Below, in pieces: positions 59,101-64,000 of a stretch of DNA of 64,000 nt. The position numbers were made by a program. Numbering within the stretch: position 1 is the first letter of the stretch; every line of letters starts with the position of its first letter. This DNA comes from Escherichia coli (GTDB lineage: Bacteria; Pseudomonadota; Gammaproteobacteria; Enterobacterales; Enterobacteriaceae). The stretch lies in the NCBI RefSeq assembly GCF_045037415.1, contig NZ_CP173440.1; one strand, given 5' to 3'.

Positions 59101-62100
59101 GCTCCCGATCGTGTGACCCTTTACCGAATACTGGAACGGCTAATGCAGGTCAGTATTGTCCAGCGTTATACCGACTCGGCAAGAACTCAGCGTTTCGCTC
59201 TGACCCAACGGGCTGCCGTAGGACTTTTTGAATGCGATAACTGCCATCATGTTATTCCTATTGAGCAGGATCCAGCCCTGGAAGCGGCCATTGAATTGGT
59301 AAAATCACATCTCACTGGACATGGTATGACCGAACGGGAAATTACCCTTTCCAGTCATGGTATCTGTCCGGACTGTAATCGTACTATCACCAAATAATTT
59401 TTTTCTTATTCCGGACGACTGTTAATTAGCGCCAGGCGTGTTCGTGTGCTGCTATCTAAAAATAATGAGGTAAACGTAATGATTAAACTAACAAACACGC
59501 TTGGTATGCAAAAGGAGCTATTAGTTCCGGTTAAAGAGAGCAAAATCGGCATGTATGTATGCGGCGTGACGGTTTATGACCTTTGCCATCTTGGGCACGC
59601 CAGAACCTTTGTAGCTTTTGATATGATTGTCCGCTATCTGCGTTTTCGCGGATACGATGTGACTTTCGTGCGTAACATTACTGATATAGATGATAAAATT
59701 ATTCAGCGCGCCCGTGATACGGGAGAGGACTGGCGCAGCCTGACAGAGCGGATGGTGCATGAAATGCACATTGATTTTGCAAAGTTAGGCATCCTGCCGC
59801 CAAACATCGAACCTCGTCCCACAGAGCACATCCCACAAATCATCAGTATGATCGAACGACTTCTGCATCGACAATTTGCTTACATTGCAGAGAATGGTGA
59901 CGTCATGTTCTCCACTGCATCGGCAAAAGGCTATGGAAAGCTTTCGGGACAGGATATTACCATGCTTCGTGCCGGGACCCGCATCGAAGTGAATGAGTAT
60001 AAACGCGATCCGCTGGATTTTGTTCTCTGGAAGCGGGCAAAACCCGGCGAGCCCGTCTGGCCATCACCCTGGGGTGAAGGGAGACCTGGCTGGCATATTG
60101 AATGTTCCGCAATGAACTGCCATTACCTTGGTACCCATTTCGACATTCATGGCGGTGGTTCTGACCTGATATTTCCCCATCATGAAAATGAGATTGCCCA
60201 ATCCACCTCCGCCAATGATGGCCCTTACGTAAATTACTGGCTTCACACCGGCATGGTGACGGTGAATAAAGAGAAGATGTCGAAATCGCTGAATAACTTT
60301 TTTACCCTGCGCGATATTCTGAATCGGTTCGATGCCCAGAGTGTGCGCTTCTTCCTGCTAAGCGCACATTATCGTAAGCCGCTGAATTATAGCGAGGAGA
60401 ATATTCACCTCGCGCGCGCCTCGCTGACACGGCTCTACACCGCATGCCAGTTCGCTGACGGGTCTCGATCTGAACAGCACGATGCATGGCGGGCCAGATT
60501 CTGTGAGGCAATGGATGATGATTTCAATACACCCCAGGCGCTTGCCATTTTATTTGAACTGACAAGAGAGATTAACAGGCTTTGCGGAACGAATGATGAT
60601 GAAGCCGCAGCACTTGCCACCACGCTGAAAGACCTGGGGAATGTGCTGGGTTTGCTTGAACAATCAGCGGATGCCTTTTTGAAAAACCGCAGTGATCTTC
60701 ATCCTGCAGAACTGCAACTTATTGAAAAGTTAATTCACCAACGCAGTGAGGCACGACGTATGGGCAAGTGGGACAAGGCCGATCGTTTAAGAAATGAATT
60801 AGCGGAGCAAGGCATTGATCTTGAAGATGTCGGCGAAAATACCTCATGGCGTATCCGATAAGTTGTCCCTCTGGATGTAAAAAATTTCAATATCAATTGT
60901 TATGTTATAACGTAATGCAAAGGGTAATTTTATGAACCAACCACGCGAAGTCGTTATTGTCGGTGCGGGTCCGGCCGGGGTGGGTATGGCGGCGCTTCTT
61001 CGTCGTAGTGCCATACAGGATATCCTGGTCGTTGACAGTCACGAAGTAGGTGCCTCCTTTATGCGCTGGCCGGAAGAAACCCGTTTTATTACTCCTTCTT
61101 TTTTTTCCAATCCGTTTGGACAACCAGACCTGAACTCTGTGACCCCTGACAGTTCATTGGCGCTTTTCTGCGGTGAAGAACATCCTGGGGGGAAAACTTA
61201 TGCCAGTTACCTTAAGGCCGTACTGGATGAGTATCAGATACCCGTCATGGCTCCCGCCAGGATTGCAAAGGTTGCGTTGCTCAGTTCCGGTAATTTTATA
61301 CTGATAACAGAAGCAGGAGAGAAGCTGGAAACACGCTCTTTAATATGGGCTACAGGCGAATTCCAGTTCCCAGACCGGCAGATTTTTCCTGGAGCAGATA
61401 TTTGTTGCCATTACGGTGATGTGACCAGCTGGAAGGATTTCAGGAAAGGTGAATACATTGTTATAGGCGGCTATGAAAGCGCGGTGGATGCCGCTGTAAA
61501 CCTGCTGGAAAATGGCTCATCGGTAAAAATGTTAACCCGCTCAGCCCCTTGGTCAACTAACCACATCAGCGATCCCAGTCTATCGCTTTCCCCTTATACC
61601 CGTGAGCGTTTGAACAGAGTGATGAATCACCGTCTTTTCGAAATTTATGAAGATGCGGATGTCTGTGAAGTAATCAGAATGCCCGGCCCGGGAAGTTCGT
61701 ACAAAGTCCATACCACAAACGGACGCGCCTGGGCTACTGACGAGGTGCCTGTGCTTGCTACCGGCTTCCAGTGTGGCGGAGGAGCAAGGCAACTGGCTGC
61801 TTTTTTTGAATGGAATGATGATGGCTATCCGGTCTTAACGGACGAAGACTGCTCAACCCTTTTTCCTGGTTTGTACCTTGTCGGCCCTCATGTGCGGCAT
61901 GCCGGTAATATTTATTGCTTTATCTATAAGTTCCGTCAGCGCTTTCCCGTCGTGGCAGAAAGTATCACGCGTCATCTGGGCCTGTCCTCTGAAGGAGTAC
62001 GGGACTGGTGGGTTCTGCCTTCAGAGCCTGACTGCTGTGCCGATGAGGACTGTGCGTGCTGAGGTCCGTGTTTATGCAATCATTCGTTTTAATGGGATTA

Positions 62101-64000
62101 GAAAGTGCAGGAAAATCTACCCTGTTTAATATCCTGACGGAAAGTGCTGCCAGTGATGAGCGTAATTTCAGGGGATCGACCGTTGTATGTCGGGAAGGTC
62201 TCATTAATGATGCAGGGATCTGCCTGGTTGATACGCCAGGCATACGTTTTCAGAGCGACAGTGAAACCACAAAACTCGCCCTTGATGCGCTAAATCAGCA
62301 TGATGGCATTCTGGTGGTTCTGCGGGCCACGCACGCTCAGCAGGAGTGGCAAACGCTCTGTCACCTCATACCGCCACAGGCAAAACACGTTGTTATACTC
62401 CTGACCTTTGCTGATAAGATCAGAAAGGGCCTTCTGGAAGTGACTGAATACCTGAGTGAAACATCAGGTGCGCCGGTACTGGCAGTCAATGCCCGGGAAG
62501 CTGGCAGCAATGTTCGCCAGGGAATAGTGCAGTTGCTGTTGCAGGATAAACCTGCACCCTCCGCTGTCTCTTTACCCCGTCAAAAGATACCGGTAATTAA
62601 TCTGCTGGCTGAATTTCCTCAACAAACGATATTTGAACATCGTTGGTGTGGAAAAGTTGCTGCAATAGTATGCCTTTTCCTGCTGTTTGCCGTTCCGGTA
62701 TGGGGGGCATGGCTGCTGTCAGATTTTATTCAGCCTGTCATTGACAGTGCGGTTATTCAGCCGCTTAAGAATATAACGACGAGCTGGCCCGACGTTCTGA
62801 AGACACTATTTGTCGGCAATTACGGTCTTTTTAGTCTGGGACTTTATTCGTTTGTATGGGCATTTCCTGTGGTGGTACTGATAGGGTTGTCTCTTTCGCT
62901 GACTGACGACAGTGGACTTAAGGAAAGAATTACAGCGACGCTGGATCCCTGGTTGAGAAAACTCGGCCTCAGCGGTCAGGACCTTATTCCTGTATTAAGC
63001 GGTTTCGGCTGTAATGTCGTGGCGGTTTTTCAGAGCCGTTCGTGTTCGCGATGCACCCGGCATGCTTGTATAAGTATGATTAGCTTTGGGTCCGCTTGCA
63101 GCTATCAGACGGGGGCGACGCTTTCTCTTTTTAATGCCGCCCATCAACCATGGCTCTTTATCCCCTATCTCAGTCTGCTGTTTTTCACAGGCGCAATACA
63201 TACGCGCCTCTGGAACGGGTCGTTGAAGCCTGGCCAAAACCAGCGTCTGACAGAGATCACCTGGCTACAATGGCCACGCTGGCGAAATGTGACATGGATG
63301 CTGAAAAATATCCTCCGTCAGTTCATTACGCAAGCCATGCCGTTATTCCTGATTATCTGCATTGTTGCGGGGATGCTTGATTACGCAGGGATCACTCGCT
63401 GGCTGAGTGAAACGACGGCACCTTTACTTCATCTTTTTAAACTGCCAGCAGAACTGATGCCCGGGATCATTTTTTCACTGCTAAGGAAAGATGGTTTGAT
63501 GGTGCTCAATCAGGATGGCGGCAGCTTAATACAGTCTCTCAGCACATCTCAGTTACTGCTACTTGTCTGGCTCGCCTCTACGTTGATGGCCTGCCTTGTC
63601 ACGGTATTTACCATCGCCCGGGAAATAAACTGGCGGTTTGCAGCAGCAGTGGCGGGAAAACAGGTATTAAGTTCTCTGGTGGTGGCTCTGGTGATATCCC
63701 AGTTATTTATTCATGAGGCATAAGTATGATCCCCAAGACTTACCAGCAATGGTACCGGTGCATCACAGAAGAATGTGGAATTCCCTTGACGCAGGCATTT
63801 ATTGCATCCCGTCTGGCAGTCCTTGAGTCCCAAGATCATCAGGAAACCAGACGTTTTGTCTCGCTATATGGGCAACAACATCTGAATAGTGTTGTACAGT
63901 GGTTCAAAAAAGCTGGGGAAGAATTGTTGTAAATCTGCCCCCTTTTCGCTTTCATACGAAGGCACCCGACAAATGCGGGTGCCTTCGATTCATTCTTCGA

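Follow-up and report, generated by a model that had tools for sequence, protein, structure and literature searches.

A Predicted Zur-Controlled Operon Pairing a Cysteine-Tailed Flavoprotein with a Short FeoB-Like Permease in Diverse Bacterial Phyla

Here we describe an operon, carried by a 64,000-nucleotide (nt) stretch of Escherichia coli DNA (RefSeq assembly GCF_045037415.1, contig NZ_CP173440.1; hereafter the window, with positions counted from its first letter), that encodes a flavoprotein with a cysteine-rich C-terminal tail, a short FeoB-like permease and a small third protein. A prior inspection of the window without database searches (the sequence-only reading) had singled out the first two genes; it had missed the third gene and the terminator. 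With a predicted Zur box on the 5' side and a putative terminator on the 3' side, the arrangement of the three genes is that of one operon, not a pair. Its features are given below, followed by three neighbors that lie outside it.

60898-60911, plus strand: predicted Zur-type operator TGTTATGTTATAAC, ending 21 nt 5' of the flavoprotein ATG; an exact match to the core TGTTATNNTATAAC
60932-62062, plus strand: flavoprotein gene, 376 amino acids (aa), COG2072/CzcO-type, with two dinucleotide-binding domains (Pfam Pyr_redox_3 and the list of open reading frames, or ORFs)
62027-62059, plus strand: codons of the C-terminal tail PDCCADEDCAC (residues 366-376)
62061-62064, plus strand: GAGG, the permease ribosome-binding site, placed on the flavoprotein TGA, 9 nt 5' of ATG 62074 (direct reading of the sequence)
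62074-63723, plus strand: short FeoB-like permease gene, 549 aa; alternative start GTG 62056
62074-62568, plus strand: N-terminal G domain of the permease, residues ~1-165 (G1 GLESAGKS, G3 DTPG, G4 TFAD)
63010-63099, plus strand: gate 1 cysteine cluster, GFGC313NVVAVFQSRSC324SRC327TRHAC332ISMISFGSAC342
63726-63932, plus strand: third gene, encoding a conserved 68-aa protein, starting 3 nt past the permease stop; GAGG at 63715-63718
63957-63987, plus strand: G+C-rich hairpin of 12 pairs, nine of them G-C, between the operon and the convergent zigA
58945-59397: Fur-family gene, immediately 5' of cysS and the flavoprotein gene
59446-60861, plus strand: cysS, between the Fur-family gene and the flavoprotein gene
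57609-57622, minus strand: twin of the predicted Zur box, an identical 14-mer upstream of dksA2-folE2-cam; part of the island context

Several particulars of the sequence-only reading were borne out: the first ORF ends in PDCCADEDCAC and matches Pyr_redox_3 over the full profile, and the second, described as a FeoB-like protein of about 550 aa and shorter than canonical FeoB, encodes 549 aa with a FeoB_N domain and two Gate stretches. Its claim that the flavoprotein stop overlaps the permease start applies to the longest permease ORF, which begins at GTG 62056, encodes 555 aa and overlaps the flavoprotein TGA at 62060-62062. We consider ATG 62074 the probable start, because GAGG lies 9 nt upstream, close homologs are 549 aa long and homolog N-termini align to MQSFVLMGLES; the same three observations speak against GTG 62056. 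The start annotated in RefSeq (window 62092, WP_228289494) falls 18 nt past the likely ATG and would delete strand beta-1 of the G domain; it is probably a start-site misannotation. From ATG 62074 it follows that the flavoprotein-permease gap is 11 nt with the ribosome-binding site on the stop codon, so that the two genes are tightly coupled and probably do not overlap. In the annotated plasmid copy of the locus zigA is convergent to the operon, and the hairpin at 63957-63987 is probably a bidirectional terminator serving both.

A genome scan for the permease yielded 80 species-level loci in at least six phyla, and six-frame ORFs of these loci were searched with seed proteins from three phyla. 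The flavoprotein occurs beside the permease in 74 of the 80, as an adjacent gene on the same strand in 72, as a divergent gene in one and at a distance of 1.5 kb in another. It lies 5' of the permease in most lineages and 3' in Verrucomicrobia; this reversal of order indicates that the linkage survived rearrangement. Where the flavoprotein is upstream, its stop is only 26-68 nt from the P-loop Gly codon of the permease in 49 of 62 loci, so close that the intergenic gap must be very short or negative, and the called genes overlap in Paenibacillus, Prosthecobacter and S. aureus. Genes for COG0523 proteins are found within 10 kb at 57 of the 80 loci and within 2.5 kb at 53, sometimes on both flanks of the pair, as in Oceanobacillus; znuABC, zur and paralogs of L33, folE2 and hisI are also often near. 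At least one zinc marker (COG0523, znuA, L33 paralog, folE2 or hisI paralog) is present at 62 loci.

The core TGTTATNNTATAAC found upstream of the flavoprotein gene is that of the gamma-proteobacterial Zur box, and the operator likely overlaps the -10 region. Exact copies of this core number only two in the window, against a chance expectation of 0.28 even with up to one mismatch allowed; the second precedes dksA2-folE2-cam and is the site listed for pLVPK LV190 by Haas et al. 2009 (Additional file 5; PMC2770081). The pLVPK Zur-site table of that study lists other operons and does not include the site before the flavoprotein gene (PMC2770081). Upstream of the pair, eight proteobacterial loci have boxes of the gamma type with scores of 12-15 of 15. 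In six Enterobacterales loci with an intact flavoprotein call, boxes in this range stand at -34 to -37; the Erwinia (L015) call is truncated at its 5' end, which makes the box offset of -158 not comparable, and Stutzerimonas has a 14 of 15 box at -86. In Firmicutes a box of the Bacillus type, TCGTAATNATTACGA, matching at least 11 of 14 positions, lies within ~125 nt at 30 of 39 loci, and the remaining loci mostly have cobW directly upstream on the same strand. S. aureus has a perfect Zur box, AAATCGTAATTATTACGATTT, ~45 nt upstream (~L090 6934-6954), and S. agalactiae a perfect AdcR-type box, TTAACTGGTTAA, in a promoter region common to the flavoprotein gene and an Amt-family gene. It would be hard to explain why different types of Zur operator occupy this position in two phyla if the operon did not respond to zinc; it thus appears to be zinc-regulated, and we predict that it is repressed by Zur and switched on by zinc starvation. 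A full-text literature search found no expression data for the operon. As a separate observation, the Pluralibacter locus has a perfect 15/15 Zur box, yet no other zinc genes within 10 kb.

The flavoprotein matches Pyr_redox_3 over residues 8-318 (E 1.5e-93; 313.9 bits, cutoff 30; the whole of the 305-position profile) and keeps both dinucleotide motifs, GxGxxG at residues 11-16 and GGYESA at 179-184. Across 57 orthologs the glycines G11, G16 and G18 of the FAD motif are invariant, as are H84, H160 and C329, and H323 is kept in 54. Its AlphaFold2 (AF2) model has a predicted local distance difference test (pLDDT) score of 90.9, falling below 50 in the disordered tail (residues 365-376). Foldseek placed PDB entry 3D1C first (TM 0.86/0.90), then Bdr/YpdA 7A7B (0.73/0.84), then bacterial flavin-containing monooxygenases (FMOs) and thioredoxin reductases. 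Every named NCBIfam family compared with the flavoprotein scored far below its cutoff. Membership of YpdA/Bdr was rejected on score (TIGR04018, 71.8 bits against 339.9) and on the motif, which is GAGPAG and lacks the Cys that YpdA/Bdr proteins conserve in an N-terminal GGGPCG. Membership of the low-Mr thioredoxin reductases (TrxR) failed likewise, at 40.1 bits against 343.45 for TIGR01292, with no conserved CxxC and C158 present in only 32 of 57. ArsO gave 46.5 bits against a cutoff of 425; for MerA the score was far below cutoff, the active-site cysteines are missing and there is no MerA-type CxxxxC. The flavoprotein thus shares with Bdr/YpdA and low-Mr TrxR the two-Rossmann FAD/NAD(P)H fold and differs from them in having no conserved redox-active CxxC. 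We know of no C-terminal Cys tail in either of those families. Homologs are labeled by JGI as "CzcD-associated flavoprotein CzcO" or "flavoprotein involved in K+ transport", a group that we take to be COG2072.

The feature that sets the flavoprotein apart is its C-terminus, ...LPSEPDCCADEDCAC, ending in PDCCADEDCAC. A CCx(1-6)CxC tail, typically following (D/E)DLS, is present in 58 of the 74 partner flavoproteins, and 11 more have a three-Cys form, xCGExCxC; those with neither are mostly frameshifted or truncated, apart from two Kiritimatiellae proteins that lack the tail. Verrucomicrobia flavoproteins carry an acidic extension of ~20 residues past the motif. Among the 57 orthologs C369, C374 and C376 are each kept in 56 and C368 in 49. 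Conservation, read together with the model, identifies the tail as a selected, flexible, metallothionein-like element. Although sequence cannot decide the matter, we favor a tail that binds metal, a partner contributing the fourth ligand, over a redox arm of the TrxR type, because the vicinal CC is dispensable and three cysteines are nearly invariant. In Pluralibacter gergoviae the flavoprotein gene is split by a frameshift in one strain (L006 6862-7991 versus L013 8861-9988) and is intact in the type strain.

The permease belongs to a sharply defined family: its 1336 homologs are all ~545-565 aa long, and sequences from Enterobacterales, Paenibacillus, Verrucomicrobia, Chloroflexi and others are ~50% identical. 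Pfam recognizes FeoB_N (50.6 bits, cutoff 27) and two Gate stretches, with no match to FeoB_C, and the protein falls below the FeoB equivalog cutoffs (TIGR00437, 118.6 versus 315.65 bits; PRK09554, 51.1 versus 683). The AF2 model has a pLDDT of 83.7. In the G domain, for which the top Foldseek matches are NFeoB crystal structures, G8, E10, G13, K14, D53, P55, G56, T111, D114 and R141 are invariant; the PDB structure search matched G domains only and returned no full-length FeoB structure for comparison. Seven cysteines are invariant or nearly so. C313, C324, C332 and C342 are present in 41 of 41 sequences and C327 in 39; C313, C342 and C507 align with the gate cysteines C403, C432 and C677 of E. 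coli FeoB, from which C324, C327, C332 and the invariant, family-specific C429 are absent. In the model C313, C324, C342 and C507 each fall in breaks of 2-4 residues between short helices, and the segment SRSC-SRC-TRH is arginine-rich. On the strength of these helix breaks, the arginine-rich segment and the positive-inside rule, C324 and C327 would be placed at the cytoplasmic mouth, below the canonical gate cysteines.

Comparison with E. coli FeoB (b3409, 773 aa) defines what the permease has kept and lost. Both have an N-terminal small G domain and a polytopic domain with two Gate motifs, including GFGCN, and the aligned core is 25% identical. The permease is 224 aa shorter; in a MAFFT alignment three regions are missing from it, namely the helical GDI/S domain, an extended loop at roughly E. 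coli 520-640 and the C-terminal ~55 residues, and its G1 motif is GLESAGKS where E. coli FeoB has GNPNSGKT. E. coli FeoB (L089 1408-3726) has a C-terminal CCx7CH tail of its own, SSCCAASTTGDCH, which is lacking in the permease family; a function in receiving metal in the cytoplasm may have shifted from it to the CCx3CxC tail of the partner flavoprotein. Unlike the canonical system, the operon has no feoA or feoC, an obligate partner flavoprotein and a predicted Zur box in place of iron regulation.

The third protein (WP_000612456) has no Pfam or NCBIfam match. Its orthologs follow the permease in Enterobacterales and Stutzerimonas, and its family comprises 351 clusters at E<=1e-3 (231 at E<=1e-10), all small stand-alone proteins, with W9, C17, R29, T41, G49 and W59 invariant; none of the 351 clusters contains a fusion that would reveal a partner. 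An identification as FeoC was rejected, there being neither BLAST similarity nor a Pfam or NCBIfam match. In Verrucomicrobia, Chloroflexi and Planctomycetes a Cys-containing protein of ~200 aa adjoins the pair in place of the 68-aa gene (L004 10908-11528 and 11 other loci). Its Verrucomicrobia form resembles the 68-aa protein in a match of 11 residues only (E 0.019), which we did not accept as homology.

Variant forms of the module occur in S. aureus and in lactic acid bacteria. The S. aureus module (L090 7001-10428) comprises, behind its Zur box, the flavoprotein, a 446-aa Gate-only permease and a 296-aa COG0523 protein. Its flavoprotein (P0241), which ends in the tail LDDYSCCEVSCTC and whose gene overlaps that of the permease, is 99% identical to the sequence of 3D1C, a structural-genomics entry described as a "flavin-containing putative monooxygenase" (S. 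aureus Mu50 NP_373108.1). By phmmer (E 1e-63) 3D1C is a true ortholog of the window flavoprotein, with the same kind of tail and operon logic; the S. aureus unit differs in having a permease devoid of a G domain and, after it, a short COG0523 gene. The S. aureus permease does keep GFGCN...HQCHTCTKTQC...GSSCSYQ. In S. agalactiae (L091 5878-8128) and E. faecalis (L092 4399-7137) a tail-bearing flavoprotein stands in a zinc cluster with a short membrane protein of the Ammonium_transp family.

We propose, with a probability of about one half, that the operon specifies a Zur-controlled module for the uptake and hand-off of a thiophilic divalent metal, most likely Zn2+, which would pass from thiolates of the permease to the flavoprotein tail and on to COG0523 proteins. 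The permease would be a trimmed FeoB-type GTPase-permease whose translocation path is lined by thiolates, namely the three FeoB gate cysteines and a family-specific C-x2-C-x4-C at the arginine-rich start of the next helix, at the cytoplasmic mouth, and it would import the metal. We picture the NAD(P)H/FAD flavoprotein as docked on the cytoplasmic side, where its flexible tail could take the metal from the permease by ligand exchange; the tail-bearing flavoprotein, or its flavin domain, might keep metal-free, oxidation-prone thiols reduced or, alternatively, the flavin might have a gating role. Neighboring COG0523 GTPase chaperones, with their CxCC motif, would then receive the metal. The analysis itself establishes how the genes are arranged, the families to which they belong, the conservation of the cysteines, the joint occurrence of the genes and the presence of predicted Zur sites; we infer in this proposal the membrane topology, the direction of transport, the identity of the metal, the contacts between proteins and the role of the flavin. 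Of the "metal uptake or reduction module" suggested by the sequence-only reading, uptake is retained as a proposal drawn from sequence, and literal reduction is unlikely for zinc, because Zn2+ is not reducible by NAD(P)H.

Two known systems invite comparison. In the Mer system of Tn501, MerT, a membrane protein with Cys pairs, hands a thiophilic metal to MerA, a cytoplasmic flavoprotein with a flexible C-terminal Cys-Cys tail. Transfer from MerT to the MerA tail is the closest mechanistic analogy for the proposed relay, and an analogy only: there is no sequence membership, and MerA reduces Hg2+, a reaction impossible for Zn2+. In Bacillus subtilis, CzcO is reported to be a flavoprotein that facilitates cation export via CzcD (PMC12607644). 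Both it and the window flavoprotein are Pyr_redox_3/COG2072 proteins genetically tied to a divalent-cation transporter, and the unexplained help given to CzcD by CzcO (PMC12607644) is the nearest precedent. The partner of CzcO is a zinc exporter of the cation diffusion facilitator (CDF) family, whereas here a FeoB-type permease lies in an uptake (Zur) regulon. We did not assign the flavoprotein to CzcO sensu stricto, since a FeoB-like protein partners it in 74 of 80 genomes and the window has no CDF gene next to it.

Several observations weigh against a zinc uptake and hand-off module of this form. At 18 of the 80 loci there is no zinc marker within 10 kb. The topology of the permease and its "cysteine ladder" rest on predicted secondary structure and the positive-inside rule. 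A model of the tail as a TrxR-like redox arm is weakened by the vicinal CC, which is not universal (C368 in 49 of 57 only). Absence of the G domain from the S. aureus permease means that the FeoB-type GTPase is dispensable. In S. agalactiae and E. faecalis the flavoprotein has no FeoB-like partner and adjoins the short Amt-family protein, so that the flavoprotein stays constant while the membrane protein beside it can be exchanged; the flavoprotein may have a role independent of the FeoB-like permease. Since FeoB relatives are best known for Fe2+, the permease could carry a substitute metal in place of zinc, and, zinc being redox-inert, the need for a flavin is unexplained. In a bolder version of the proposal the module, found on hypervirulent Klebsiella plasmids and in S. 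aureus, would be a zinc acquisition machine of a type not recognized before: Zn2+ would move through the FeoB-derived permease along a ladder of Cys thiolates and reach the flavoprotein tail, and thiol/disulfide chemistry driven by the flavin would reset the relay, gate it or power metal release, feeding COG0523 directly and coupling redox energy to the import of a redox-inert metal. We regard this version as doubtful.

Among other explanations, the one that survives best, though unlikely, makes the flavoprotein the real effector, as a redox enzyme of zinc starvation or a thiol/zinc buffer that might mobilize Zn from thiolate stores, through their oxidation or reduction, or replace a zinc-dependent oxidoreductase, its membrane partner being an exchangeable accessory or a carrier of something other than metal. 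The main argument for it is that the tail-bearing flavoprotein occurs in zinc regulons beside FeoB-like proteins with a G domain, FeoB-like proteins without one and Amt-like proteins; moreover, its family includes FMO and disulfide-reductase members and the Pfam "Gate" domain is not metal-specific. These arguments must contend with a near-obligate translational coupling that ties the flavoprotein gene, whichever of the two comes first, to the FeoB-like gene in 72 of 80 genomes, with invariant permease cysteines that match the metal-path residues of FeoB, and with the absence from the 80 loci of any co-conserved biosynthetic or substrate-related genes.

A little less probable is an importer of a substitute metal, Fe2+ (or Co2+/Mn2+), which under zinc starvation would metallate the zinc-independent paralogs that these islands also encode (FolE2, gamma-carbonic anhydrase, PyrC2, QueD2), with the flavoprotein keeping metal or thiol ligands reduced in aerobic cells. 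All-thiolate ligand sets favor Zn2+ and Cd2+ over Fe2+, and on this point of general coordination chemistry the extra thiolates of the permease speak for zinc; the pair, moreover, adjoins znuABC, zur and COG0523 genes and not iron genes, has no FeoA or FeoC partner, and scores far below the FeoB equivalog cutoffs. The permease is nonetheless of the FeoB family and keeps its gate cysteines, a reductase is chemically more sensible for Fe than for Zn, and, in the argument of Haas et al., paralogs under Zur control may work with other metals, such as Fe in the gamma-carbonic anhydrase (PMC2770081). That the two genes are ordinary, unrelated neighbors, a generic oxidoreductase and a degenerate iron transporter brought together in the island by coincidence, as annotations such as "NAD(P)/FAD-dependent oxidoreductase", "thioredoxin reductase" and "ferrous iron transporter B" might suggest, is scarcely credible given their co-conservation at 74 of 80 loci across phyla with coupling, tail and Zur sites while gene order and flanking genes differ between phyla. 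The recurrence of pairing, Cys tail and predicted Zur boxes in so many lineages is more than chance.

The window segment that contains the operon is 100% identical to pLVPK-like virulence and hybrid plasmids of Klebsiella pneumoniae, with 548 matching plasmid records (526 Klebsiella, 20 Escherichia and two Enterobacter); the same segment is found on a chromosome scaffold of K. pneumoniae ATCC 13883 (L009) and in Citrobacter koseri. The island includes hemB2, pyrC2, thrS2, a gene for an amidase-like protein, queD2, a gamma-carbonic anhydrase gene, folE2, dksA2, cysS2 and hisI2, and also encodes two COG0523 GTPases and two Fur-family regulators. The sequence-only reading had placed the pair immediately after a Zur-like regulator and cysS and assigned it to this zinc island. 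The first point is correct as regards a Fur-family gene (58945-59397) and cysS (59446-60861), and membership in the island is well supported by the predicted Zur box 21 nt before the flavoprotein ATG and by conserved boxes elsewhere. That reading would have been refuted by a lack of co-conservation or of metal regulation; at the sequence level it withstands both, given the pairing at 74 of the 80 loci, which span at least six phyla, and the predicted Zur boxes of Enterobacterales and Stutzerimonas, of 30 of 39 Firmicutes loci and of S. aureus.

Further observations concern the neighboring genes. The island DksA paralog (57155-57577, minus strand) has a single Cys in place of the C4 zinc finger of canonical DksA, and is of the Zn-independent DksA2 type. 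By eye, the CysS paralog (59446-60861, plus strand) keeps the motifs YVCG, HIECS and HHENE, which we take to be zinc ligands of E. coli CysRS. This retention is in line with Haas et al. 2009. Positions 58848-58944 form the divergent promoter region of a COG0523 gene and the Fur-family gene; this region contains no good Zur-type box and has a TGCAAT direct repeat (gttaaTGCAATcaagtTGCAATaat), which could be an operator for the island's own Fur-family regulator. In Phytobacter massiliensis (L011) the permease is truncated to residues 124-549 and the flavoprotein was not found, with the 68-aa gene, COG0523 and hisI still there; this looks like a decaying copy of the island.

Parts of this picture were visible earlier. 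Haas et al. 2009 (PMC2770081) flagged the pLVPK cluster as Zur-regulated, and their Additional file 3 (Fig. S13) shows COG0523 with ZnuA, "TrxB" and "FeoB" in S. aureus, S. epidermidis, Crocosphaera and Cyanothece. In S. aureus at least, this neighborhood of "COG0523 subgroup 14" seems to represent the module described here; it is a figure note, in which the proteins, the tail, the cysteine cluster and the pLVPK copy are not analyzed. A paper on S. aureus ZigA was set aside as a source on the module, as it concerns a different COG0523 gene, NWMN_0417. Beyond the supplements of Haas et al. 2009, our full-text literature search found no characterization of the flavoprotein-permease pair, and we found no curated family model or paper for the permease subfamily, the Cys-tailed flavoprotein, their pairing, the Zur sites or the Klebsiella plasmid copy. 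Within the literature searched, then, the generic families and the neighborhood (the 2009 note) are known, and the permease subfamily, the tail, the obligate pairing, the predicted Zur sites and the plasmid copy appear to be new.

Conservation of the module extends from Firmicutes to Verrucomicrobia, and we predict that zinc regulates it. To our knowledge, bacterial zinc importers comprise ZnuABC/AdcABC, ZIP/ZupT, some P-type ATPases and metallophore systems, none of the FeoB type; if the module moves or hands off zinc, it would represent a new transporter class in zinc biology. It would also provide a first concrete role for the CzcO-type "transporter-associated" flavoproteins, and it would give the COG0523 proteins, which are not yet well understood, a defined partner acting upstream of them. 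The S. aureus form, with its solved structure 3D1C, offers a tractable experimental model. Carriage of the module on 548 plasmids, mostly of K. pneumoniae, and on the S. aureus chromosome could bear on the resistance of these bacteria to zinc sequestration by the host.

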